Source: Antedon mediterranea
Lineage: Eukaryota > Animalia > Echinodermata
Direction: 5' to 3'
Assembly: GCF_964355755.1 (NCBI RefSeq)
Contig: NC_092678.1
Span: 22,027,365-22,091,364, forward strand
Length of the DNA stretch: 64,000 nucleotides
Every line of letters begins with the position of its first letter. The stretch's first letter is position 1. The notes beneath the pieces were generated by a model. It searched no databases. It saw only the letters and a program-made list of their open reading frames with translations, and was not told where the DNA came from. Shown one piece after another: positions 3,701 to 55,600 of this stretch. Made by a program: the position numbers and the translations under genes.

Positions 3701-6700
3701 ACACGCCTGTCCGGTATAGCGATAAAACATGTATTGACCAAACCAGCATTAACAAGGGTGTCAAACGCAATTAAGAATCGTTCACTTGAATTAAAATGAC
3801 CTCAATCGAACACTGATCATGCGGCCACATCAAAGAACATTTTTATTTGATTAGGATGTCCCGCGTTGTAAACTCCACACCATGACAATTGACTAGGCGT
3901 ATTGTTTCCAGCATAGAGATATGCACTATAATATCTCTATGTTTCCAGTCAAATACGTTATGACAATCGCGCTGGTTTCGTTGAAATTTCTTCGAATTAT
4001 CTAAAATTATTTTTGTGAAGCGAGTTTAAAATTGTAATTTGCATGTACAAATTGTTTTCCTGCCGTCGTGTTATTTTCAGTATTTCTGTCATTATCATAT
4101 TGACGCATTATGCAAGTAAATTGACTTTAATTTAAATAATTATGTTCAATATTTTGTAAATTTGCATATGAGAGCTCGTCACATGTCGGACGCATCTGTA
4201 TCTGTCAATAATGTGTTTAGTGTAGTGTGTGCGCTGTAGAAAATAAAGGCTTAAGTACATCATAGGCCACTGTAGGCCTATGTTATTAAAATACAGCACA
4301 CTGTGACTGTTCTAATATAGTAACCATTACTTGTAATTGTTTAAGGGGTCCTACACATCAGACATAAAGCCTTTAAAATTCATTTTCTACTTGAATTTGT
4401 CACAAACCTGTCACAAAGGACAAGGCCTACTTCTAATGTCACAAAAACATTTTCACTGTTTTGCATGCCAATATTTATAAAGCCGCATTCGAAAATGTTA
4501 GCATTTAATCAATTTATTCACGCAAAGTAAAGGCTATAGATTTCTAGTCTTTCCGTGTTATATTATCCGTCGCGTCTAAACGTTTACCCAGTATGAATAA
4601 GGTGTTACGACTCAAATTGAAATTATTTCTAAATTACTAACGAAAATACAAACCACCGGGGGACAGGCCTAGATCTATATGGAGTCAAACGGAAGGCCTG
4701 TCAGTACTCCCGAGCTCAATTAATTTACTGTAGCAATTGGGACTTGATTCGAACAATATGTCAAAGAGAGCAGGCCTACAACAGTTTCTGAGTTATTTTG
4801 CAACTGTTGCAATTGTTGGCGTTTCATACTAAGAAAATAACCATGGAAAACGGAAGGGGTAATTCAACTATGCCTGTCAAAATTGGGCTTGATACGAATG
4901 ATATATAAAATAGATGTTGGCGACTGTTGCAATTTTAAATAACTTTTTATATTAAAAAAGGTAATTTTTTAGTTTTCATATATAGATGTCGTATAATTAA
5001 ATTGCCTTCATTGATTGAGGGTGGGGGGGGGGGGGGGTGGCGGAATTATGAATAATTTGAGATTGGAACTATTTTAATCTAGTCCTATTATAAGGCACGC
5101 ACCATTTCATACCAAGGCGAATCTTGTTAGATTGATAGTTTGACAAAAAAGTGTTGTGCCCAATATGATAGTGATATTCCCAAATATGGTATAGTGATAT
5201 GACATCATCATGACTGTAGGATTATTGCGATAATCTTATATACGATCGAGTAATATTTGCTGCCACCTACGGTTGTGTGGTACAGTTCAGCTATAGTCGA
5301 GTTACTGTAGACATGTGTAATTGAGCTGTCCGGAAATTCCGTCTATATTTCCGTGATCTGTTCCGTACGATTGCTTGTGTAAATTACAATGATAAATGTA
5401 AGTTTATTATATTTATGTGATACTATTTGTTTAGTCATAGTTACGATATTTTGCCTTTAATTATGAGATTTATCTTGAACATGTGCTGCATCGTGGTAGC
5501 CGCCATTTTGAGTGATACGGTAGACTATATAAGACAAGGTTGTTATGATAATAGACCAAAACATTTTGTAATATTCCTAAAATATATTTAGGCTAAATTT
5601 AGTATCCGATATATTGGTTCACATGATAATGTTGATTCTTTAGATGCTATGTATGTAACTTAGAATTTCTAGGTATAGACCGGTTGCATAAGAATGTTCA
5701 CTCTGAATTTGATCCGTCACGCATGAGTGATTCGTATCTGACCTCGCGTCGACTTAACTTTGCTGTAGGTTAACATTATTTATAGATTAGAGTTGCTTTT
5801 TGTTCTGAATGGAGGTTTGTTTATACGTATGAGTTAAGCAGGGATATTGATACATAATGAATATAATTATATTGTTTTAGGCTATGGAGTTATTCATGTG
5901 CTTTTGCTAACCTGAGAACGTAACTGTAGAAACTGTACGCTGTATAATCTGGAAGTATTTATGCCCGGCAAAGTTGTGAGTCATGTTAAAATCTATGTAA
6001 AATGTGGTATTATGATGAAAGTTACCAAGAACATTAATGACAAGTGTATGAGAAACATTATTGTATCTGTATTTTAATACTTAGTATTGTTTATATTTGA
6101 TTATGCTTTTAACAGTTTATTTATGATTGAATGTTGGTATGGAGATTTGTAAATGATTATTGAGGTTATATGCTATGGTATAAGGTTAAAGGTTGTTTAT
6201 GATTCTTTTCTGTATTTATTTGTAGAATTGAATGAGACGTTTAATAAACAGATTCATCTCAAACTTATTCCCGTGGTATATCTACTCATTTGCTAACCTG
6301 TGTGTAGTCGTCCGACCTTTTCTGTACAATTCAATTAACTGCTGCTAACCAGAGAAGAGCAACGATGGCTACGATTGACCAACTGCGGATAAACAGGAGG
6401 AACCGGAAGGGGAACCTCACGAGGGTGATAAACGAGTTATCACATTTAATGGAAAGGAAAGCTTCTGAAGCGGAGATTTCCACTGCGAAGGCAAAAGCAA
6501 AGACGCGGTTTGAGCTTGTAGAAGAGTCCCATGACAGTTTGGTCGAAAAGATAAATGATGAAGAGGAATACGAGACAGAACAAGAGTGGATGAATCACTG
6601 CCAGGATCAATTCATGACCGCAATGGCAAGATTTGAAGTAACAAGGGATGAGGTAATCCAAGAGAACGTATCTATAGATAATGAATCTGATGATGTACTT

Positions 6701-9700
6701 ATAAGTAATGTAACAAATAATGTGTCTGATAGTGTACCGATAGAAAATATACCTAATGTTAGTGTATCCGATGATGTGTCTAATAATGTAGATAATACAT
6801 CTGATTCTAGTGGTGGTGCTACTGGTGTATCTAACGTAGATAACACTTTAGTAAGTCTGTTTAAAGCATTAACTTTGCCACAGACTCCAATAAGGCAGTA
6901 CGAAGGCGATCCACTGTATTACCATGCATTTATTACTTCTTTTAATAATACTGTCTCTGGTATTCCAGAAGACAAGGTAAAGTTAAACACTTTAATGTCT
7001 TTGTGCGCTGGCAAGGCGTTACAATCGATCCAGTATTGTGTATTGAAGCCCCCTAATGAAGGGTACCAATCAGCTTGCAAAACTCTTAAAGACAGATATG
7101 GCAACACAGCCGTTATTGTGCAAGCATGGATTGGGAAAGTATTGGACCGGCCCAAAATTGATGCATCTAAGCTAGGCGACTTTGCGGATGATCTGGAGAA
7201 CTGCCATGAAGCACTGTTAGCTTTAGGTTTTCTTAATGAACTTAACAATCAGAGTAGTCTAAAGCAGATAATTGATAAGTTGCCGAGATTCCTGCAGAAC
7301 CGATGGCAAGGAGCGAATTACAAGCTGAAGGAAAAGGGAGTTGTACCTGGCTTAAGTGATGTGGTGAAGTTTGTCAAAGCATCGGCAAAGGAGATCAATG
7401 ATCCAGTGTTTGGGAACACTACCAACGCTACGGCTGAAGTTCAACAGTCGAGACAGAAGAAACACCAGGTAAATAACGTTAATGCTTCAGTTCCTTCACA
7501 GAGTTCTGCAAAAGAGAAGTTTCCAAAGTGCTGGATATGCAAGTCTGATGCACATTGGCCAGATGAGTGTGAGAAGTTTAGCCAGATGAAAGTAGAAGAT
7601 CGATTCGAGCTGGCAAAATCTAATCATGCATGCTTTTCCTGCCTCAAGATAGCAGGACGCAACCATCGGCTGAGTAATTGCTCAAGAAAAAAGGTATGTG
7701 GAGAAAAGATGGGCGAGAACAACTGTAACAGGTATCACCACAAACTTCTTCATTTAACAAAGAAAGCTGGTGTCGGCCATGTGAGTGTTATTGGTGATAA
7801 GGAGCCTTTGCTGTGTGTTCTAGACGTAGAAGTGATTGGGAAAAATGGGAGTCATGTGGCAAACGTTATGCTGGATCTTGGGTCACAGGGAACTTTTGTG
7901 AGAACGGATTTCGCCAACAAATTGGGGATTGGTGGAAAGAGTGTGGCTGCAGCAATAACCAAAGTAGGAGGCGTGGAAGAAATCTTCGAGTCACGGTTGT
8001 GTGAAATAAAGTTGCAGGGAATGGATTCGTCTGTTCACAACATCAAAGCCTTAGAAATGCTGACCATCAACGATGTGAACAGTGTCAACATAAAAAATTT
8101 AGAGAAATTTTTTAATATGAAGAATACTCTGAGAAGACGAGGTGGGCCGATAGACATCTTAATTGGAGTCGATCATGCCTATTTGATGACCGGAGAAACC
8201 AAGAAGACTAATGGCCTAGTGGCATTGAAGACGCCATTGGGATGGGCTGTATTTGGTGGTAACCAGAAGGATGCAAGGTTTAACCAGGTTATGAATGTGA
8301 AAGTAAGCAAACCAGTCAATTTAGACAACTTTTGGTCCGTTGAAGCGATGGGTGTCGATGTTGGAAATTGTGAGTGTAAGGCAAGACTTAGCGCAGTAGA
8401 AGACATGGAAGGGAAACTAATTGAAGACTCTAGTTCGAAAGTTGGCAATCAGTGGTTGATTCCCTATCCATGGGCGAAAGATCCATCTCAACTTCCCAAC
8501 AACAGAGGCCAAGCAATTAAAATGCTAAATGGTTTAGAGAAAAGGTTGAAGAAGAATAAGGAGCATGGTGCGGCTTACCAAAAACAAATGGAGGAAATGG
8601 TCAAAAAAGGATTTTCTCGCAAATTAAACAATACGGAAATGAAATTATATCAGGGACCTGTTCATTACTTACCACATCATGCGGTAGTCAGGGCTGAAAA
8701 TAAGAGTACACCCGTGAGGATTGTATTCAACTCGGCAAACCGATGCCAGGGGGGAGCGATCAATGAGTACTGGATGAAAGGTCCAGATCTATTGAACAAT
8801 CTGAGTGGGGTGCTGATGCGGTTTCGTGAAAGAGAAGTTGCTGTCTGTGGGGACATTTCAAAGATGTACCACCGAGTGCTGATACCAGAAATGGACCAGC
8901 ACGTACACAGATACTTGTGGCGAGATCTTAATTCTGATCGAGATCCTGATACCTATGTTATGCAAGTGTTGACATTTGGGGATAAGCCAGCTGCGGCAAT
9001 GGCGCAAACTGCTCTCAGGTTAACCGCCAAAGAGGGTGAGGAAATGTATCCAAGAGCTGCGCATGTGTTGAAGAACGAGACGTACATGGATGACATATGT
9101 GTTTCGGTGACAACGATCGAAGAGGCGAAAACCCTAACCAAACAGATGGATGCCGTGTTAGGCAACGGAGGATTTAATATCAAAGAATGGATATCAAACA
9201 AACCGCTAAACAATGAAGAAAGAAAAGATAAGGAACAAAAGGTTCTGGGTGTCTCATGGAACTACGCGGATGATACACTGAAGGTTAAGGTGAAGCTAGA
9301 TGATGACATTACGAATGCAGTAGTAACAAAGAGAAAGGCGTTGGGTATGATTGCGCAAGTTTTCGATCCAATTGGATTTTTGGCGCCAGTGGTTGTGAAG
9401 CTGAAAATAAAGATGCAAGAACTATGGAAGTCAGGTGTTAACTGGGATGAAGACCTGCCTAATGAAACTCAACAAGAATGGAGAATATTACTAAAAGAAC
9501 TCAACAATGCAAGTGAAATCAAGCTGCCAAGATGTCTGACTCCGGATAATTCTACTGACGCGCAATTGATAATTTTCTGTGATGCATCTGAAAAGGCGTA
9601 TGGGGCCTGTGCTTACCTGAGATGGAGACTGCAGGATGGTTTATTCAAAACAAGATTCGTTACTGCAAAGTCTCGAGTGGCACCGCTAAAAAAGTTGACC

Positions 9701-12700
9701 ATCCCAAGACTAGAGTTACAAGCCGCAGTTATGGCTGCTAGAATGGGTAAATCTATAACTGATGAATCATCGCTGCCATTAACAGATGTATTGTTCTTCA
9801 CAGACAGCATGATAGTGTTGGGTTGGTTAAAAAAGCCATCATGCTGCTATAAGCAATTTGTAGGTACGAGAGTACTGGAAATACAGAACAAAACGAAACC
9901 TGAGAATTGGAGACACGTGTCCGGAGTGGAAAACCCGGCTGACGATGTTTCTAGGGGAATTCCAGTGACAAACTTAAATGGAAGATGGATAAGAGGGCCG
10001 CCATTCCTGCAGAGTCCAATGCATGAGTGGGAACAAGAGAATTTGAGAGTGGAAGACGATGACAGTGAAATAAAGCTTGTAAAATTTACTGGAAATGTAG
10101 AGATAAAGCAAGTGAGACCGGAGGTGGAGATTGATAACTGTGAAACGTGGGAAGAAATGTTGGAAGTCTATAGAAGGAGAATCTATGGTGATGATTCACC
10201 AGCACTGGATGTCTATAAAGTCAGGGACATTGAGTTACTACTTTTGCGAAGGGTACAAAGAGAATGTTTCGCAGAGGAATTACAATTGCTTCGAAATGGT
10301 AAAGGTGTCCAGAGTAATAGCCGTATATGTAACTTGGATCCTATGTTGGAAGCAGAGAATGAAGTGATCAGAGTAGGAGGACGGCTTAGAAATGTAGAGA
10401 AAATAGACTTGGATGTTCACCCAATACTATTGGATCCGAAACATCGCATCACCAAATTGCTAATTAGAAGGGCGGATGCTAATGTATTCAATCACAGCGC
10501 AGGACCTAATCAAGTTTTCGCGTACTTAAGAAGAAAGTACTGGATCCTAAAGGGAAGAAGCCAAATCAAGTCTGAATTAAGTAAATGCATTGAATGTCAG
10601 AAATGGAGGAAGGGACCAGAAACCCCTAAGATGGCAGAACTTCCAGAAGCTAGACTAAGAATTGGTAAACCACCATTTTTTTCTACTGGAATGGACTGTT
10701 GGGGTCCTATGATGGTGAAGGTTAGAAGATCCCAAGAAAAACGATGGGGATTAGTTTTTAAGTGTATGACGACTAAGGCAGTTCATTTGGAGATTCTTCA
10801 TAACATGAATACAGATGCTTTTATCATGGCGTTTAGACGATTCGTGTCTCGCAAAGGAGTCCCGAAGGAATTGTACTCCGATTGTGGAACAAACTTCAGG
10901 GGAGCGGAAAGAGAATTGCATGAGTGCTTCAAGGCTATGAGCCCAGCTTTGCAAGAGAAACTAGCACAACAACAGGTAGAGTTTAAATTTAATCCTCCCA
11001 ACGCACCACACTTCGGAGGCGTCTGGGAAAGAGAGGTTAAGTCGGTGAAGAATGCCATTAAGTGTTCCTTGAAAGATCGAGTAGTAACGGAAGTTGTGTT
11101 GCAGACAGTGATAGTTGAAGTGGAAGGCCTAATGAACTCAAAGCCGCTGGGTTATGCATCATCCAATGTTTCCGATGCTGATCCGGTTACTCCGAATGTT
11201 CTGTTAATGGGTAGGCGTGACCCATCTTTACCATTTTCATTAGTCAGTCCTCAAGAAATCAAAAGCAAGAAGCAATGGCGCCATAGTCAGCTTATCATTG
11301 ACTTATTTTGGAAAAAGTTTGTATCGGAATATTTACCAAGTCAACAAATCAGACAGAAATGGGATAAAGAAACAGAAAACTTGAAGGAGGGTGACCAGGT
11401 GTTAGTTGTTGACAACCAAGCACAGAGAGGAGATTGGTTAACAGGAGAAGTACTGAAAGTTCATCCCAGTGCAGATGGACGAGTAAGGGTAGCGGATGTG
11501 AAAATGAAAGAAAAGGTATACAAACGTCCAGTCGTAAAATTGATCAAACTGGAGGAATGGAAGCATTAAGCTATACTGTATTGAAGTATCACAGCTGAGC
11601 TAAGATGGATTAGTTTCTTTGTATTAAATTATTAATCTGTTTAAGTTTAATACACGACTTGCTTAGTTTAGAGATATTGTATTTGTATCATGTAGTTGCC
11701 TTTATTTAGTTGATCTTTTGAAATGTTATAAATGTTTTGTTATAATGAGATTTCCTCATTATCGGGGGGAGTGTAGGATTATTGCGATAATCTTATATAC
11801 GATCGAGTAATATTTGCTGCCACCTACGGTTGTGTGGTACAGTTCAGCTATAGTCGAGTTACTGTAGACATGTGTAATTGAGCTGTCCGGAAATTCCGTC
11901 TATATTTCCGTGATCTGTTCCGTACGATTGCTTGTGTAAATTACAATGATAAATGTAAGTTTATTATATTTATGTGATACTATTTGTTTAGTCATAGTTA
12001 CGATATTTTGCCTTTAATTATGAGATTTATCTTGAACATGTGCTGCATCGTGGTAGCCGCCATTTTGAGTGATACGGTAGACTATATAAGACAAGGTTGT
12101 TATGATAATAGACCAAAACATTTTGTAATATTCCTAAAATATATTTAGGCTAAATTTAGTATCCGATATATTGGTTCACATGATAATGTTGATTCTTTAG
12201 ATGCTATGTATGTAACTTAGAATTTCTAGGTATAGACCGGTTGCATAAGAATGTTCACTCTGAATTTGATCCGTCACGCATGAGTGATTCGTATCTGACC
12301 TCGCGTCGACTTAACTTTGCTGTAGGTTAACATTATTTATAGATTAGAGTTGCTTTTTGTTCTGAATGGAGGTTTGTTTATACGTATGAGTTAAGCAGGG
12401 ATATTGATACATAATGAATATAATTATATTGTTTTAGGCTATGGAGTTATTCATGTGCTTTTGCTAACCTGAGAACGTAACTGTAGAAACTGTACGCTGT
12501 ATAATCTGGAAGTATTTATGCCCGGCAAAGTTGTGAGTCATGTTAAAATCTATGTAAAATGTGGTATTATGATGAAAGTTACCAAGAACATTAATGACAA
12601 GTGTATGAGAAACATTATTGTATCTGTATTTTAATACTTAGTATTGTTTATATTTGATTATGCTTTTAACAGTTTATTTATGATTGAATGTTGGTATGGA

Positions 12701-15700
12701 GATTTGTAAATGATTATTGAGGTTATATGCTATGGTATAAGGTTAAAGGTTGTTTATGATTCTTTTCTGTATTTATTTGTAGAATTGAATGAGACGTTTA
12801 ATAAACAGATTCATCTCAAACTTATTCCCGTGGTATATCTACTCATTTGCTAACCTGTGTGTAGTCGTCCGACCTTTTCTGTACAATGACCATAAATATG
12901 ATCGCATCACATTTTTATATCACATGAAGTTTGATAGTGTAGACAGAGCTTATTGATTTATGCAGTATATCAATACCCCTTCCCCATTTACGGTAACATT
13001 GTTTAATTAATGAACTGTAACATGAAGCAGCTCATAACAAATTTGAAGAATGTTAATATCTTGTACAGTACATCCTACTAAAGTTTGAGAGTGGGTTGTG
13101 GCAGTGGATATGCGGAAAATCCGCTGTTTATACTATTTAAAAAAACAGATCATTTTCTTCTTAGTCACACATTAACATCACAAAAATGATATAATTATAA
13201 TGTACAGTACATCACACTTGTCAAAGGGGGGGGGGGGGGAGGGCCGGCGAGGAGAGTAGATTTTAGAAAAACCCTTCGCCACCATATTGCCATAAAACAG
13301 ACATTTATGAGTCATAAAATGAAGACCTCACATCTGAGCTTTTCAAATGCAACAGGACATTCAATTGTAAAATTGAGTAATATTGATTTAACTAATTCAG
13401 AGCAGTTATACTAGTCTTCTCCTTTCAAGTGAAGATAATTGCTTTTGACAAGTTCCTATCATCGATTCTTTTTCAAACGCTAACAACCCTTCGTTGCCTT
13501 TCACAAAATAAGTGTATCGATCTAATGAAATGTACACAGTTGGCCAATCGATGAAATATTTTAATACTTTAATAAAGCAAATAAAATATTAATTGATGAG
13601 TGTATAGTTGTATTTTAATTAATTTATTTCAGCCGTAATGATAGAAGCAGTTTTCTTTTTTCAGGATTCCAAATAAGCTTTCAAGCCTGGCACAGTGGCG
13701 TAACGGATATGAGCGCTCACTGGCTAAGCCTATGGCACCGGAGCTTATGGGGGGCCCTGAGAAGTGCCCAGAGGAAAAAACGGTCTCTTACGCCACTGTC
13801 TTGAAATAGATAAAGGCTTATTGCTTCTGCAATAGGTTTTCACAGGACAATTGTTTATTTCATATTTTCGTTGAAATATGCCTTTAGGCTTACAACGAAA
13901 TTAGAACCAATCGAAAACAAAAACCATGTTATTTATTAGGATATGATGTAATGAATACAACATTATTAAAATATGTCTTGGAACGTCCATTCAGTTATTC
14001 TTTCATATATGAGTGAAATCTGGAATAAATTGTTGAATAATTGAATAATTACGACTAATTTAAAGTTATTTAAATAAAAACGAACGATTCAAGAGTGTAC
14101 ACATTATTCAAACATGAACCTGGCAAAGTGTCCACTGCCCCTGCGATATGACTCAACCGATGAAAACTATGTCTATTGAAGTCGGTTCAATGCACCTTTA
14201 ACTCCCTAATGCAAAGTATACTCTATTTTGATACATTTTAATTTCAAAATGTACATTAGAAGCGTCTGACTGTGTACATGCATGATGTGTGCAGTCAATG
14301 TGTACCGAATGAATCATTCTATAGCGTATATACTATATTGTTCCTACAAAAGTGAAATTCGTGATTCCCGAAGAAGGGTAGACACGCGTAAACTTTACTT
14401 CACTTTGCCCTTAGACGTTTGGGGACTTTTGGGGTACCGGTGGTAGATGATTTAACAACTCTCCTTCGTGTGGCCATGTCCTCCGCCATCCCCAGTGTCT
14501 TACTCACTCTTCCCTGGTCTTATTCACAGTTGTTTTGTTAAAGTAACGGAGAACGGTGCCGTATTCCTTTCCGTAAAAAATAGTGTGAATATAAGCTGAG
14601 CGCCGCAGAAACATCCTGTTTTTTCAGTGTCAAACGTTGAATCTATTCCTATGATGAAAATGTATTAACCTCACTGTTGTCATGAATATGGGACCAGCTC
14701 GATTACCGATTACCTTCCTGAGTGTAATAAAAGACTACCGTAAGGTGACTCTGACCAGCATAGAACTTGTAACATTCATGGCAATGGCTTAATATACAAA
14801 AGGCACCAATTAAGTTATGGAAAATCGGAAAATAATTGACCACGATTTCAAACTACAAGAATGATATATTTAGGCCTATCATTACATTTATTCATTTACA
14901 TTGCAGGTGGCTGGGAGTTGCTAGTGTGGGAGTAAGCAACTCTGTAGATGTAAATTACGATCCTAAAGCGTGTAAAAAAGTTCCAGGATTAGTGAGAGAA
15001 CAGAAATCAGTATGTCAGCGGCAACCGGATACAGTTCGAGTTATCGGCGAAGGAGCTAGAATGGGAATATACGAATGTCAGGAACAGTTCCAACACGAAC
15101 GATGGAATTGTACTGTTTTACCAAATGATGAAAATGTTTTTGGAAAAATGATGCAAATTGGTAAGTTAACGATTGATTCTGGGACAACTTGGCATTATAC
15201 ATACTTATGAGGAAGTTCTAGACGGCGATTTTCATACGTATAATACTTAAAAATGGAAACGCCGACTCAAAACACTAACATCATAACATAACCAGATAAA
15301 AGTATGGGTGTCCCAGTGCGAACGGCATGAGTATCAATAGCCAGTGTTTTAGGGCGATCGAAGAGAGCAAAATGATTTGGCACCATCTCCATTATAATAT
15401 TGCACAATAAATACTATGGAAAAAGAAAGAAGGTAATATTTACAGAAAGTTACAGATACAGATTCTGAATATCCTTGGGGACAAGCGATACATTGTTTTA
15501 CTGTATACTGCAAAACAAAAATAAGATTTTAAATGATAAGGAACATCTTTCAACGAAACATCCGTGACCGAGTTTTTATTTTACAAAATTTATTTTATAA
15601 AATCTTTTTGATATTATTATTATAAGATACAGAACAGAGAGCTTTCACTCCACCTGTGTTTTTACTAATTTTGTCACGCAATTTATTTTAGTCATTATTC

Positions 15701-38200: not shown

Positions 38201-41200
38201 TCGCAATAATATTGAAGCTCTAGATGTTTTGTGTTTTGGTAAGTAATACATTTTTTTGGATTGGCTAATTTTTTTTACAATAATTCTTTAAATTCATAAA
38301 AGATACACAATGAAATACCAGGTCATAGTGCAATCCAGAATACCAGGTCATAGTGCAATCCAGAATACCAGGTCATAGTGCAATCCAGAATACCAGGTCA
38401 TAGTGCAATCCAGAATACCAGGTCATAGTGCAATCCAGAATACCAGGTCATAGTGCAATCCAGAATACCAGGTCATAGTGCAATCCAGAATACCAGGTCA
38501 TAGTGCAATCCAGAATACCAGGTCATAGTGCAATCCAGAATACCAGGTCATAGTGCAATCCAGAATACCAGGTCATAGTGCAATCCAGAATACCAGGTCA
38601 TAGTGCAATCCAGAATACCAGGTCATAGTGCAATCCAGAATACCAGGTCATAGTGCAATCCAGAATACCAGGTCATAGTGCAATCCAGAATACCAGGTCA
38701 TAGTGCAATCCAGAATACCAGGTCATAGTGCAATCCAGAATAGAATTAGAATGTCAACAATCCTTAAGCTCTGTCTACACTATCAAAATAGTTTGAAAAA
38801 AAAAAGTATGATGTGGCAAAATATGGTAGTGGCATGCCCAAATATGGTACTAATATGACATTATCATGTCCATATATGGGCACATCACATTTTTTTTTGT
38901 CACATAAAATTTGATAGTGTAGACAGAGCTTGATATAACATGCATGGCTATAGTATTGTGGAATACTGTATATTACAGGTTCCTGATGTTCGTATATTAG
39001 AGGGATGTACTTGTATTATCATGTCCATATATGGGCACATCACATAAATAAGGGTGTCACCTAAATAGTACAAAGTTAGAACTGCTATTGCTAATAGGTC
39101 ACTAAATCTCTGTCTACACTATCAAACTAGTTTATAAAAAAAAGTTTGATGTGCCCAAATATGGTAGTGATATGCCCAAATATGGTAGTGATGTGCCCAA
39201 ATATGGTACTGATATGACATTATCATGTCCATATATATGGGCACATCACATTTTTTTTGGTCACATAAAATTTGATAGTGTAGAATGAGCTTGATATAAC
39301 ATGCATGGCTATAGTATTGTGGAATACTGTATATTACAGGTTCTTGATGTTTGTATATTAGAGGGATGTACTCCCTACTGGAATACAAAACAATTTTTAC
39401 TTTTGTAGGGCATCTACTTTTTGAGATGACGTGTGGTAGGGAATTAGACTCCGCACATCCAGACAGCGATGATTACGCTCAATGTAAACATCCAGAAGTA
39501 AAAGAGGTAATAATAATGATATTTTAGAAACACTTCCTCTATGTTTTTCCATCAAAAGTAAACAAACAAAATCAACAACATTTTTGGTTGAATTTGAAGG
39601 TAAAATGTGGAGTAATAAACTACTAAAGTTCATCGCAAATAGAGCGCGCGACGCATGATTGGAAGGGTTTGGGAGCAAACGTCATGACCTGTATGTACGT
39701 GATGGATTGTTTGTACGTACACGTCATGACGTTTGCTCTCAAACCTATACCATTATACACTGTGCCATGACGTTTCTCGCGAAATCAAGCTATTTGCGAT
39801 AAACCTTAAATAAGTAGATGGTATTTTAAAGGGTTATCTTATTAAAATAAAAGTTGATAAAATGTTATACTAGTTAGTATTTAAATACCAACGTGTGCTT
39901 TATCTAAATGTTATCTAGACTTCTTTTAGCCTACCAATAAATATGTAGGTACCAGCACATATCCACTACCATATTCTAAAGGATTATTGTCAGTAGAATA
40001 ATACCGTAAAATCTTCTAAAATTGTTTTTGTAATAGCTGTATAAACTAATGGTTTATTAATTCACAAGGATACATATTTCATATTTTACTATTAGTAATA
40101 TTAATAATAATTTATTTGGAAGCTACACTTTTGAAACAGTGGCACACTTATTGAATGAAGTGTCCATTCTGATTTATAAATATCTATAATACAGTAATTG
40201 TATCTGTACCACTGTATAGTTGAATTAAACAAAATTAAACATATAATTATATCAAAAGTTGCGTTTGTTCTGAAATACTGTAATGTTGAACTTTACTAAT
40301 TCATTTTTAAGGTTCTTGAGTTTATCTTCAACAAATCTAAAGAGTATCCTTCAATTGGAGAGGTCGCAGGTCACGACTTCTTCACATCGTGCAATCTGGT
40401 TGAATTGAAAACAAACCCACCACAACCAGTAAGTGTTTGAAACGTTTTGTATTAAACTATATTTTTTATTTATAGTGCAATTCTGGCATGCATGTATTTA
40501 TAGCAAATCATTGGCACAGTACCATATTTCATTTATATTCATGTCCAACAACGATCTATTCTAGGCCCTCATCTTTTAGAAAATAGTTTTTTATTGTATA
40601 ATATTATTGTTATTATATTTCAACATTTATGATATGTTTTTTTTTAATAGATAAAACTGTCTTCTGGAATGAAAAGCATAATGAAAGTAATCCATAAAAG
40701 CAAACTACCAAAGTAAGATATTTTTGTTTTCTGATTAAACAACTACTGTATATCCTCAGGTATAATCCCACTTCAGGTCTAATGCCACCCCCTACTATAG
40801 GTCTGATTTCATAAACGGGCATAATTCCGGGTATAGTCCCAGTATTGCCTTTTTACCTGGTTGTAGGACTCTTTCTAGCCAGTTCTGATGAGTTTTTACA
40901 AGAAATTCTTACCAATAATTTTTTTCCTGAACCAGACTATAAGGGTATTCTCCCACCCACCAAAGTCGGCCCAATTTTGTGTTTTTTTGAGGTGGGATTA
41001 TACGGTATATATTGATTTTTATATTGTGTTTAAATATTTTGTATCTGTGGTTTTTAGAATTAGTACAGAAAATGGGGAGAAGAAGCAAGTGAATGGAGAA
41101 AGCAAACGCCTACAAAGAGAAGCAAGCAAAACGAATGTGAAAGAGTCAAATCAAAACAAGTGAGTCACTCACAACTCTCTCCCCCTCCCCAGATTTATAC

Positions 41201-50100: not shown

Positions 50101-53100
50101 AACTCCATTACTGTATATGAAATAAAATATAAAAAATTTTAAATAAAAATAGCTCCGCAGCTTATCTGTGAAATATATTTGTAATTGTATGTGTAATTTT
50201 TATAAAGGCCTATAATAGTAGTATAGTTACAGTAATGACTGTCACTCAGTCACACCAGCTAGCCTAAAAATGCACCAGAAAAGCAATAATTATTATTATA
50301 AACACATGCCATTAATTATTTGATAACAGTTATAATGATTAAATTTAGGATTAGGATAATTAAAGGTTTTACTACTACGAATTTTCTATGTTTGGGCCTA
50401 GCTTCATCCTAGGCCCACATTACTGTCAAGTTTATCGCCGGCTTCAACGCACTTTCTAAGCCTATCGCCAAACAGTTTTCTCGCCGATAACAATAACAAC
50501 GTATAAAGGGGTTGCAAAATATGCGAGTTTTACTAAAAACTGAACCAGGCTATATTAACATAACTTGTATTATTTTATTTATATAATAATGATGGCCTAT
50601 ATTCTAGTTCGTTCTTTTTCTAAAAAAATGAATTATATCCAAAAAATAAGTTAGGAATACAATGATATTTTCTACTTACGATTGTTTACTATTTCATTAC
50701 ACAGTTTCTATCGACTTCCTGGTTTATGTGTGGGAGATTATTTCAGTAAAATGGACAATATCGTCGTTTATTTATTAATTTATATTAAAGAAACAATAAA
50801 ATATTGATTTTTTAATTGAACATAAACTTTTTTAATCGTTTGGTTTTATATAAAATGTGTTTTCTACATAAAAACTAACGGTAGCAAAATTTAATTTGGC
50901 GTTCGCGAAATAATGGTTTGTGTACAAAATTCATAAGTTCGCGCGGATCGGAGAGCGTCGTCTGCTAACACTGAGGGCGCTTTACTTTTTCTGATATCTT
51001 AACACTAGTTGAAACAGCTGTGAGGACGACTCTATCGACCGACGACGGCCGGAGAGCCCTACTGAACTAGTGAAGGTTAAGGTTAGGCCTAGCTCTAGAA
51101 GCATTTTTTTTTTTCATGATAAAAGTTTCTAAATTTCGAAGAAAACATGGAGTCAAGTATATTATTAAGAAGACAAACTGTGAAATAATAGTATTTTTAT
51201 TATTCTAGCTAGGCCAAGTTACTGACAGGTATATACTATTTATAGGCCAGCCTGTCAGTGTTATTAAATTAAAAAGTTAAAATTCTCTCTTTCGTTTTTG
51301 TATGTAGGTTGGGGACGCCTATACCAACGGTTCATTTGTGTATGCATCATATCAATTTTACTGTGCTTTTTCATCGTTTACCAGCTACAACCTAATCCGT
51401 CAGCAAACAGGTATTCTACAGTAAATTTATTTTATCCAAGTCATGTCGTGTAAGTAAAGTGCCATTTTTGAAGATATTGAAGTTTTAAATTCTTTCTGAT
51501 TTCTCTTTATTTTAGCAGTAACAAAGGAGAAGTGGATTCGTTACTTATACGTGAAATAGAGTACGACAGACCTCCGAAAGAAGACGTAAAAGAATACGAT
51601 AGACCACCGAAAGAAGATGTCGCAGAATATGATAGACCTCCGAAAGAAGACGTCGTAGAATACGATAAACCACCGAAAGAAGATGTCGTGGAACACGATA
51701 AACCACCGAAAGAGGACGTCAATATCACCAGTAATCGGTCCAATCGAGAAAAACCCATTAAAAATAAACCAGAGCTTCTAAGACCTCAACAGTTTGGGAA
51801 AATGGTTCACTTTGCTACCAACGATTCAATGTTTGATTTCAGGACAAAAATAGATTTTAAACCAACAGTAAGAAAGTTTTTAGTTGATAAACAAAACATA
51901 CAAAAATCATTATGACCAGTAGTAATATGTTTAATATTTTTTCCCCCAGACTTGTCCAAATTCCATCCAGAAAAAACTGCAACAAAGTAAATGGGCATCA
52001 GAGATGTTCCTGCCAAATATCACCATGGCGATGCATGAGGGCGCCATGTCTGAAGAGGAGTATAATCGACTGCATGCGTTCGGTATGCCGTTTGGGCTTA
52101 GCTTCCGAGATGACTTATTATACTCAGGTAAATGATGACAAATAGGAGATATATTGTATATTAATATAAAGGCAAATTACTGACAAAAATGACAATGCTG
52201 TCGGTATCAGTGGCTGGATCTCAATGTAGATACAAAATAAAATAAGCAAAAAGCTAAATCAAAACGATAAAGTAAATGAGCCAGAAAAATTAGCGTTTAT
52301 ATATTTATATATAAATATAAATCCAAAGGCAAATTACTGAAAAAAATGACAATGCTGTGGGTATCAGATATATATATATGTATATAAATATATAAACGTA
52401 TCATATCTAAACGTATCAGGCACAGAAACAATTCTAAACCTCCCAGTGATATACTGAAATTTAACTAATTCATTTGAAACGATAAGATGAAGAAATCTGT
52501 GAGAATGAGAAAAATCGCCCCAACCGAGACTATATTTATATATGATACTTACTGTATGCTCAAAATGAGGGTGATTTTCCTTTGTAGAAAAGCCTATTTG
52601 ACCGTGATTGGTTGGTTTCATCTTCCGATCATCTGTAAATTATTAAATGAAAACATTTAACTGTGCTCCATTCCTTAGTTCTAATATGGGTCCAAGATAT
52701 AAATAGAATCTGGGACAGATGGTGTCAATCCAAGATTTTTTCTACAGTATTTTAAAAAGCTTTTTCTTCTGCAGATTTACAAGCAATCCTATCAAAGCTA
52801 CCTCGTGTGGACAGTATATTAGACTTTTCTGGTAAAGAGAGACCATCATGCCTCAGCTGTGCCGTTGTAGGGAATGGCGGCATTCTGAACGGATCTAAGC
52901 TTGGCAAAGAAATAGACGAACATGATCTTGTCTTCCGGTAATTTTATATTCCTCATATAATATTTGTAAAAATACTATTGTTGTTTTATAATGTATGTTT
53001 ACTATACAAATGAACCAATTTATATGTGTTTTCTGAATAGTGGTTGGCCAAACTTTATGTGACAAAAAAATGGACATAATGATGTCAAATCACTGCCATA

Positions 53101-54516
53101 TTTGAGCAAATTACTACCATATTTGGGCACATTTGTCAAAGTAGTTTCATAGTGTAGACAGAGCTTTAAAACATAATATTGTCCTTGTGTTCTTTTTACA
53201 GGAATATTTCCCTTTTATACAGTAGCTGTCCCTGAATAGGAGGTTCCTCTGAATATGGTTGACCCCTAAATAGGGGTGTCACCTAAATATTACAAAGTTA
53301 GAACTGCTATTGCTAATAGGTCACTAAATCTCTGTCTACACTATCAAACTAGTTTGATAAAAAAAGTTTGATGTGACCAAATATGGTAGTGATATGCCCA
53401 AATATGGTAGTGATGTGCCCAAATACGGTAGTGATATGACATCATCATGTCCATATATGGGCACATCACATGTTTTGTCGTATAAAGTTTGATAGTGTAG
53501 AGCTTAAGATTACCATTTTTTATTTTCGTCGTTTTAAGGGTGAACCACGCCATCCGCAGGGGATTTGAGGAAGATGTCGGAACAAAGACAACACATTATG
53601 TAATGATGGACAGATCATTAGCCCACACCAGTAAAGAAGATGTCCCACGAGATAAGGTAGGTATCTATCTTCAATGGCAGCTATCAAAACCATTATGAAT
53701 ATTCTCACAATTTTTGAATGGCTATAAAATTGTTTTAATGACCAGTTATAGGCATCTTGTGAAATACAAAACATGAATAAAATAGTTCAATATAGGATTA
53801 CATAATAATATGTTTTTGTTTTTAAGGGAATCAAATACGTCTTTTTACCGTGCCGAAGGAAAGACTATAACTATATTAACACTGTTATTGGACCACCGGA
53901 CCCAAAACGACAACTGGTTGCAGATGCCAAAGATTTGAGAATTCTCCACCCTGATTTTGTTCGTTACATCCATAGAGTGTAAGTAGGCTACAAGAGGAGG
54001 ACGAAATGCTACATCTCTCTTTTTTTTATAATTTTATTAATTATTATAAAACATATAATTTTATTTTTTGCTTAATTTTTAACTTGAGATTGGCAATGGT
54101 GTTCACTTTTCGTTAAATATCGTTTATTTCAATATTTTTTCATAATAATTCTAAGAAGTTTCAACTTAAAAAATAAAAATGATACAATTTAATTCAAGAA
54201 TAGCCAAATTGTCAGAGGAGAGGCTTGCTATATTGATATTTTTTTGTCCTCTAGTTGGATGAAAGTGCGTGCCTTTCGACCAACGACCGGTGGCATGATG
54301 TTTATGTCGGCACTGCATGCTGGATGCGATTCGCTGGACGTATACGGTATGGGATACACTAGACAGTACTCGGATCATTACTACGACTTGACCTACATTC
54401 CATTTAAGGCATTCCTTGGTAGCCATGACTACAGACGAGAGATTAAACTTATGAAAATGTTAGATGATGATGGTATAATTAATTGGTATAAGCGAGACGT
54501 CAAGGAGTTTTTGTAA
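44182..54516 (+). CDS. GT29 sialyltransferase, ST6GalNAc I/II-like, copy A. Exons: 44182-44185, 51308-51410, 51516-51867, 51950-52127, 52775-52937, 53539-53656, 53827-53978, 54255-54516 (443 aa)
   Basis: Type II TM anchor. Sialylmotif [30 protein letters not shown]...[10 protein letters not shown], motif S RPTTGG...CD...VYG, motif III HYYD, motif VS HDYRRE. The ATGA|GTAAGT first coding exon is mirrored in copy B. Confidence 0.88.
45102..45649. repeat. Tandem duplication of ~283 bp downstream of the transposase stop
   Basis: 45102-45384 is repeated with scattered differences at 45385-45649. Confidence 0.85.
45669..50108 (-). CDS. Chapaev transposase with RAG1-like N-terminal Zn fingers and RING, 11 exons: 50108-49311, 49187-49048, 48865-48656, 48464-48213, 48026-47950, 47816-47620, 47386-47260, 46982-46771, 46673-46530, 46391-46184, 45976-45669 (890 aa)
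   Basis: 2673 nt, phases consistent, no stops. N-terminal [54 protein letters not shown], finger CKQC..HVC. Core motifs KFGGDKGG (D), FGDYDFL (D), [48 protein letters not shown] (E). Confidence 0.88.
51559..51720 (+). repeat. Coding 33-bp repeat x5 ([11 protein letters not shown]) in the sialyltransferase A stem
   Basis: Visible in ORF 51532-51915. Absent from copy B. Confidence 0.92.
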
Positions 54517-54766: not shown

Positions 54767-55600
54767 TAGTAAAGCTATTTTTATCACATCTGCACAACTC
54801 CCCATGACAATTACCCTTTGTCTAGGTGTTATGGTTCGATTCATGGTTAGGGTAGGTTTTAGTGGGTTCTTGTACTAAAGGTTTTTGCAGTAGAAAAGTT
54901 CTCCTTGCATAGTAATTGTCTGGGGTAGTCTTTTTAATAATTTTCTATATTTTATAACCTTTTTTTTTAATTATGCAACACATTTTAGTTTAATGTTTTG
55001 TACTTAATGAATTTAAATGGCAATAACAAACCTGTGCCCATCCTGATAGAGTGATATAATGATGTGTACAGCAACATTTTATGGAAATAACTGCAAAAAT
55101 AGTAGAATTGTAGTAATAACATGTACTTAAGTCACAAAGTTTGTGGGTCTTTAAGGAAATACTGACAATTTGTCGGCAATTTTTTTTTTGCGTCGCAAAA
55201 CATAGCTGGAAATTTGAATATGCATAAATCAAAGCTTTTGATTGGCTGTGAATAATAACCTATAGTATAGTTCTAGTCTTCTATATAAATTCAGAGAAAT
55301 TGTTGACCATACCTTGACATTTACTTGTATGTAAAAATCATTGATGTAAACTATATATTTAGAGTACAAAGTAAAATTCATCAATGAAAATATTTATTTT
55401 ATTATATCGTAATAAAACTCTGAAAATTATTTGGTTGATGTTTGATTTTTTAAATATTTTACTAACCACCCACCTGCTTTATTTAAATGACTTTGGATGT
55501 TTAAAAATGTTTAAAAATCATTTTGTTTTATCAGAGACAAAACAAACAAAAATCTAAAATACAGTTAGATTTGTTAATTGTATAAAGCTCTGTCTACACT

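Follow-up and report, generated by a model that had tools for sequence, protein, structure and literature searches.

A BEL/Pao retrotransposon in Antedon mediterranea probably primes its own reverse transcription with an RNA completed by splicing. The element lies in the 64-kb stretch of DNA that we analysed (here called the window), and the 12 nt directly after its 5′ LTR are the exact complement of an exon junction formed when an intron is removed from the LTR. We give the reading that the spliced LTR RNA is the element's own minus-strand primer, replacing a tRNA, a probability of roughly three in four. The match between junction and primer-binding site (PBS) is itself a real, conserved and unusual feature.

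Coordinates of the element are collected in Table 1. The 5′ and 3′ LTRs show no mismatch over their 1114 nt and the reading frame is open; the insertion is therefore recent, and its priming signals should be functional. The Pfam domains of gag-pol are DUF1759, Asp_protease_2, RVT_1, Peptidase_A17, Integrase_H2C2 and DUF5641, and the order protease, RT, RNase H and integrase together with the Pao-specific domains is that of BEL/Pao elements (Belpaoviridae). A protein comparison found the same domain set in the nearest relatives. An LTR within the range of 0.2–1.2 kb, a polypurine tract and a target duplication also agree with the description of the family (PMC8742986). Gag has a triple Cys-His box, with three Cys/His fingers at about residues 389–463, as described in the available part of PMC554778. 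Its third finger, CX8CX3HHX3H, is unlike the Suzu form given there, a difference that does not suffice to assign the element to one of the named clades (Suzu, Sinbad/Sailor, Flow, Tas, Dan). In the RT–RNase H region one protein is 100 per cent identical and has Antedon mediterranea as its source label, and the other 119 among the matches listed are 50–56 per cent identical, with echinoderms, hemichordates and corals as the named sources. The ICTV profile of the family also lists an 18-nt PBS for tRNA-Arg or tRNA-Gly and calls replication poorly understood (PMC8742986). The Antedon mediterranea element has no such tRNA-type site, so its placement in BEL/Pao rests on protein and LTR anatomy rather than on its mode of priming.

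Table 1. Positions of the element's features in the window.
Feature	Position	Strand	Basis or remark
Left target-site duplication, ATGAC	5210..5214	+	Sequence repeat, 5 nt
5′ LTR, 1114 nt, ends TG...CA, equal to the 3′ LTR	5215..6328	+	
LTR intron 1, GTAAGT...TTTTAG, 483 nt	5398..5880	+	Joint 5397-5881, GT..AG, depth 433, X5 only
LTR exon between the introns, 95 nt; its final 4 nt form the 5′ portion of the PBS complement	5881..5975	+	X5 contig depth 791
Predicted second helix, 5′ arm	5954..5968	+	Duplex prediction against 6271-6286, z −1.9
LTR intron 2, GTGAGT...TTTGTAG, 250 nt, splits the PBS complement	5976..6225	+	Joint 5975-6226, GT..AG, depth 422, X5
Remaining 8 nt (3′ portion) of the PBS complement; putative primer 3′ end at 6232 or 6233	6226..6233	+	End inferred from relatives
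AATAAA hexamer; role as main poly(A) signal not supported	6243..6248	+	Depth arithmetic
Predicted second helix, 3′ arm	6271..6286	+	Duplex prediction
PBS position, ATTCAATTAACT, complement of the exon junction	6329..6340	+	Sequence
gag-pol, one intact ORF, 1734 aa, BEL/Pao type	6365..11569	+	
Polypurine tract adjoining the 3′ LTR	11764..11771	+	
3′ LTR, 1114 nt, same introns as the 5′ LTR (intron 2 at 12533-12782)	11772..12885	+	
Right target-site duplication, ATGAC	12886..12890	+	

The surroundings of the element are repetitive. It is inserted in a short, very high-copy interspersed repeat (flanks 5130–5214 and 12886–12951) that is MITE-like and recurs in inverted orientation throughout the window (families D4, D5, D7 and D8). 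Elsewhere the window contains a duplication of about 7 kb (51500–54400 and 59100–61500) with a coding-like 33-nt tandem repeat at 51558–51722, and two perfect tandem arrays, one with a 25-nt unit (38214–38842) and one with an 85-nt unit (55447–56681).

An earlier note on this DNA had proposed self-priming across an LTR splice junction, and the sequence relationships it gave were reproduced when we recomputed them. The 12 nt after the 5′ LTR read ATTCAATTAACT, lack TGG and are not of the tRNA-CCA type, and the gag ATG follows 36 nt past the LTR. Joining 5975 to 6226 yields the exact 12-nt complement, the best result of all GT-AG joins in the LTR. Unspliced RNA pairs with the PBS over 8 nt, the longest contiguous complement in the LTR, and this stretch begins at 6226, the first base past the best-scoring acceptor. 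When LTR sites are scored with approximate weights, the acceptor that ends at 6225 comes first and the GTGAGT donor at 5976 second. In shuffled leaders a 12-nt match was reached in 14 of 3,000 cases if any GT could be joined to any AG, and in 3 of 20,000 cases when joining was limited to the 18 combinations available from the five top-ranked donors and as many acceptors. The 12-nt PBS complement has no contiguous occurrence on the + strand of the 64-kb window. ARAGORN found no tRNA in the window, and both of the two Rfam matches within 5200–6400 were below gathering scores.

Evidence on transcripts comes from the assembled contigs, and their depths, of four (X1, X2, X3 and X5) of the five sequencing runs that contain the stretch, none of the five being on record as RNA; X2, X3 and X5 are from one sample. 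The junction 5975^6226, which was to be sought in sequencing data according to the earlier note, is present in one of the four runs (X5), and LTR intron 2 is removed there. X5 also shows that the LTR has a further intron beyond the single one first proposed, removed by the joint 5397-5881. Both joints are absent from the contigs of X1, X2 and X3. Depth in X5 is exon-shaped, at 791 over the middle exon, 168 over intron 2, 419 over 6226–6329 and 66 from the PBS into gag; in X1, X2 and X3 it is flat, with an LTR-to-internal ratio of about 2 to 4. We read X5 as RNA, on the contigs of one sample from a run whose kind is not on record. X1 was also considered as an RNA run and rejected: its LTR-to-internal depth is 2:1 and it has no joints, and it is read as DNA. 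An X1 contig breaks at 5947–5976, with no joint listed.

The depths also bear on the ends of the transcript. The AATAAA hexamer lies where the earlier note had placed it, but its proposed use as the poly(A) site, leaving a short R, is not supported by the depth over 6226–6329, which is 419 against a rough 236 expected if the RNA ended near 6268 and fits RNA ends at about 6300 or beyond. As a weak measure, depth gives a hint that most spliced RNA ends before gag. The three-exon LTR RNA in X5 is several-fold deeper than the gag contig. A transcription start about 100–130 nt upstream of 5398 would fit a rough depth estimate, because the contig ending at donor 1 has a depth of 86 against 433 for the joint. 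The TATATAAG at about 5527, inside intron 1, seems not to be the main promoter. A start at 5972 with a 4-nt first exon was rejected, as a 95-nt exon with an intron upstream of it was seen.

Relatives were collected by a metagenome scan, of which we used the best 80 of 103 confirmed loci (RT identity 40–57 per cent); a viral contig set gave 43 pattern matches, none confirmed as a relative. The stretch before gag was visible in 45 of those best 80 of 103, by eye and by script, and none of the 45 has TGG at the LTR end by eye. Donor region, acceptor and PBS are all on the contig in twenty-five of the best 80 of 103, which with the window make 26 scorable rows. In the other fifty-five the sites are off the contig, the intron is absent (three loci) or the locus is degenerate. 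Donors were chosen blindly, as the nearest strong GT donor judged by its intronic hexamer alone. Under this rule, the upstream exon lengthens the Watson–Crick duplex with the PBS in 22/26 rows, compared with 0/26 for the unspliced acceptor end. In three of the four misses (L003, L006 and L008) a strong donor that would fit stands at a more upstream position, and the fourth (L014) has a GC donor. At L014:7036 this donor reads GCGAGT and stands at the fitting place. In eight of nine representative rows no PBS gives a more stable duplex than the row's own. The extensions sum to 27, which 6 of 362,880 permutations reach, a value that overstates independence as the rows share ancestry. Because they are related, we count about six independent changes rather than nine. 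The covariation between junction and PBS that should exist in related families if the proposal were right is therefore present.

The commonest type among the best 80 of 103 has ATTCGATTTCT after the LTR. In its LTR a GTRAGT donor is preceded by AGAA and a YAG acceptor is followed by ATCGAAT, and the join of the two is the exact 11-nt complement of ATTCGATTTCT. Between this type and the window both partners have changed: one C-G pair has become T-A, one A-T pair has been added, and AA/TT has become TT/AA. Deeper branches of the tree (40–48 per cent RT identity) have five other post-LTR sequences with the donor on the contig, each of which matches its own junction, over 11 nt in L052, 10 nt each in L057, L055 and L066, and 9 nt in L054. 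The 11-nt pairing of L052 is formed by a different sequence, a private change, and L039 has a private 15-nt match to which the upstream exon contributes 8 nt, with one G-U. There are at least seven kinds of post-LTR sequence, each matched by its own LTR junction. In the relatives the junction and the PBS change together, and the predicted pairing is kept with other letters. A further post-LTR type (TTTGAAC...) occurs at L061:1-47, where the acceptor is off the contig.

Some contigs break at the splice sites themselves. The L007 contig ends exactly at the donor, the L009 contig begins exactly at the acceptor, and at L040:116 foreign sequence is joined at the first exon base, as is expected where spliced and unspliced reads branch. 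The position of the PBS also differs among types. It is flush with the LTR CA in the window and in six deep-branch relatives, as a primer site requires, and in the commonest type an unpaired spacer of 2–5 nt separates LTR and PBS. This spacer implies that integrase would trim the ends of these elements in an unusual way. At the spacer loci L001, L005, L006, L014, L022 and L029, a second CA usually overlaps the first PBS base.

One alternative is self-priming that needs no splicing, with the 7–9 nt past the acceptor sufficient in unspliced RNA and the junction adding strength to the duplex. Unspliced RNA does pair with the PBS over 8–9 nt in most relatives (9 nt including one G-U in the commonest type). 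The upstream exon adds only 1 nt in L054, L055 and L066 and only 3 nt in L043 and L048, and in L054 splicing is predicted to stabilise the duplex by less than 1 kcal/mol. The corresponding figure is 8 kcal/mol in the window, however, and the end of the upstream exon covaries with the PBS over 2–8 nt in 6/9 representative rows. The last exon base before a donor is usually G under the splice consensus, and it is G in 0/20 of our curated rows. Every intron ends in G and the exon ends avoid it, so that spliced and unspliced forms differ at the pairing face. On this balance we consider splicing-free priming unlikely. The 1-nt gain in three loci and the 9-nt unspliced pairing of the commonest type do make the statement that splicing licenses reverse transcription too strong for all families, and from the pairings strict dependence on splicing appears less sure than self-priming.

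A second pairing, of the upstream exon with U5, is also predicted. For the last 27 nt ahead of the junction, U5 is a better partner than its shuffled versions in 19/20 rows (mean z −2.2), with p ≤ 0.05 in 12/20, compared with mean z of +0.3 and 0.0 for control segments. The sequences involved vary between families. A conserved second helix joining the upstream exon to U5 is thus predicted, and in cis it would close a loop that holds the junction, making the pairing between loop and PBS a pseudoknot. With such an arrangement, nested folding would seldom yield the junction–PBS helix. Nested folding of the window gave this helix a probability of 0.04 when spliced and 0 when unspliced; among 16 relatives the spliced form was favoured by more than 0.2 in four and the unspliced form in two (L039 and L066). 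This modelled result counts against a simple fold-back and is no measure of a pseudoknot or a duplex in trans. In L001, L006, L012, L019, L029 and L048 a conserved TTATACGA motif downstream of the acceptor follows A(A/T)TAAA and immediately precedes the second helix's U5 arm, and this region is possibly that of poly(A) cleavage.

If the spliced LTR RNA is the primer, its exon junction, held in the loop of the second helix, would anneal to the PBS, the element's RNase H would cut at the 3′ end of the duplex in the manner of Tf1, and RT would extend from the cut primer into U5. Position 6232, instead of 6233, may be the last base before the cut, since in the six deep relatives the PBS adjoins the LTR CA and the duplex ends on ...GAA(A). 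For progeny to retain the intron, the LTR copy that RT reads across it would have to be unspliced. With priming in cis by the 5′ copy, this would be the 3′ copy; with priming in trans by a short spliced RNA, it would apply to both. For the source of the primer, we give an even chance to fold-back by the 5′ copy within genomic RNA. Supply in trans by an independent, short and spliced LTR transcript seems less probable, and the 3′ copy or a back-spliced circle would be a rather unlikely source.

The pairing could instead be regulatory, masking the 5′ LTR's poly(A) signal or controlling translation or packaging, with an unknown RNA as the primer. The partner sequence follows the 5′ LTR only, and an A(A/T)TAAA hexamer overlaps or abuts the paired region in the commonest type among the relatives. 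There is no such AATAAA overlap in the window or in the deep-branch relatives, however, and the duplex is flush with the LTR end in seven elements, as described above. The 36-nt leader moreover shows no other primer site. We find a regulatory role in place of priming very unlikely. It is less credible still that the junction mainly arises by back-splicing from the 3′ LTR donor (12533) to the 5′ LTR acceptor (6225), with a circular RNA that primes itself. The LTRs are identical, so linear and back-spliced junctions look alike in contigs, and the L016 contig reads in an order that a circle would give (see below), but collapsed repeats produce the same arrangement, copies derived from a circle would lose the intron that nearly all LTRs seen retain, and the X5 junction depth (422) far exceeds that of gag (66). 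Priming by a host RNA such as a tRNA half, a fragment or another small RNA, with the LTR match as coincidence or mimicry, would follow the stated family rule of tRNA priming (PMC8742986) and has a precedent in the half-tRNA priming of copia elements, according to the available part of PMC6317226, yet it is hardly compatible with at least seven post-LTR sequences that lack TGG and match their own junctions, nor with a chance of 3/20,000 for the window alone.

Three LTRs without the intron were found among the best 80 of 103 loci: L075:2279-2633, L046:1-150 and L016:3645-4040. L075 lacks exactly 103 nt, the length of the intron in L022, with the deletion shifted by one base, and non-element DNA flanks its intron-less LTR. 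In L016 a single contig reads pol, intron-less LTR, PBS and gag. Under self-priming by the spliced LTR, a 3′ repeat free of the intron could become a partner of the PBS, be cut and spoil strand transfer. The intron would shield the 3′ repeat from this pairing and cutting, which would explain why introns persist and why intron-less LTRs arise yet are rare.

A bolder form of the same reading is that a deep and widespread clade of marine BEL/Pao elements has swapped the host tRNA for a primer of its own. Here a short, abundant LTR transcript, built by the spliceosome into a hairpin that shows the PBS complement, would be co-packaged with genomic RNA that is unspliced, a cut would give it a conserved 3′ terminus of ...GAA, and splicing would be an obligatory, host-controlled switch for reverse transcription. 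We offer this tentatively, and its full scope is doubtful.

We found no description of a spliced self-primer in the literature searched, a scope without most subscription journals, Repbase, GyDB and supplements. The available parts of PMC3601003, PMC3286476, PMC4580426, PMC8220671 and PMC13524379 contain no mention of a spliced primer, and the term 'PBS' is absent from the available parts of five BEL/Pao surveys (PMC3118150, PMC6238403, PMC8556966, PMC554778 and PMC2774666).

Priming of reverse transcription in LTR elements is a textbook step with few known answers. If the reading is right, a primer sequence absent from the DNA is made by the spliceosome, which would be a new route beside tRNA, half-tRNA and 5′-end self-priming. 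Retrotransposition would be tied to host splicing and independent of both tRNA supply and silencing by tRNA fragments. It would also explain why a large group of marine elements receives 'no PBS' calls, as standard annotation, which seeks a tRNA match or a contiguous LTR match, is blind to a split PBS complement.

Several known systems resemble parts of this arrangement. In retroviral initiation complexes the tRNA primer makes extra contacts with U5. There, the primer segment on the 5′ side of the PBS duplex base-pairs upstream of the PBS, crossed as in the predicted second helix, but the retroviral primer is a tRNA and that of the Antedon element would be encoded by the element. Within Belpaoviridae (Semotivirus), the element shares domain content and order, a single gag-pol ORF, LTR length, the polypurine tract and the 5-nt duplication. 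The ICTV profile nevertheless gives the family a PBS for tRNA-Arg or tRNA-Gly (PMC8742986), and the BEL/Pao element Achilles has one for tRNA-Tyr (available part of PMC4580426), whereas the clade of the Antedon element is without one.

Self-priming has been described for Tf1 and Tf2 of Schizosaccharomyces pombe and for sushi, and predicted for the plant lineages Tcn1 and TAR (Houba, Osr-1); in the available parts of these sources (PMC7175516, PMC6317226 and PMC5341516) the LTR match is always contiguous. Tf2 offers a parallel in that a choice at the RNA level sets whether the transcript holds the self-primer (available part of PMC5341516), although in Tf2 this is a choice of transcription start and in the Antedon element it would be one of splicing. 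The closest likeness is to Tf1 and sushi, where a PBS beside the 5′ LTR complements LTR-derived RNA in a duplex of about 11 nt (PMC7175516 and PMC6317226, as far as available), and an RNase H cut would free the primer. As far as these sources describe them, systems of this type belong to Ty3/gypsy or copia and have an uninterrupted primer sequence in the DNA, which in Tf1 makes up the initial 11 nt of the transcript. The Antedon element departs from them in several ways. It carries BEL/Pao domains rather than those of a Ty3/gypsy chromovirus, the Tf1/sushi lineage, and in place of a contiguous LTR match of at least 10 nt it has 8 nt, with 12 nt reached only across the junction. Its complement is split by a 250-nt spliceosomal intron and becomes whole only after splicing, at least 95 nt inside the RNA rather than at the extreme 5′ end, with the 95-nt exon, and beyond it another intron and exon, lying upstream. 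The Antedon element thus likely works like Tf1 while standing outside the Tf1 group.
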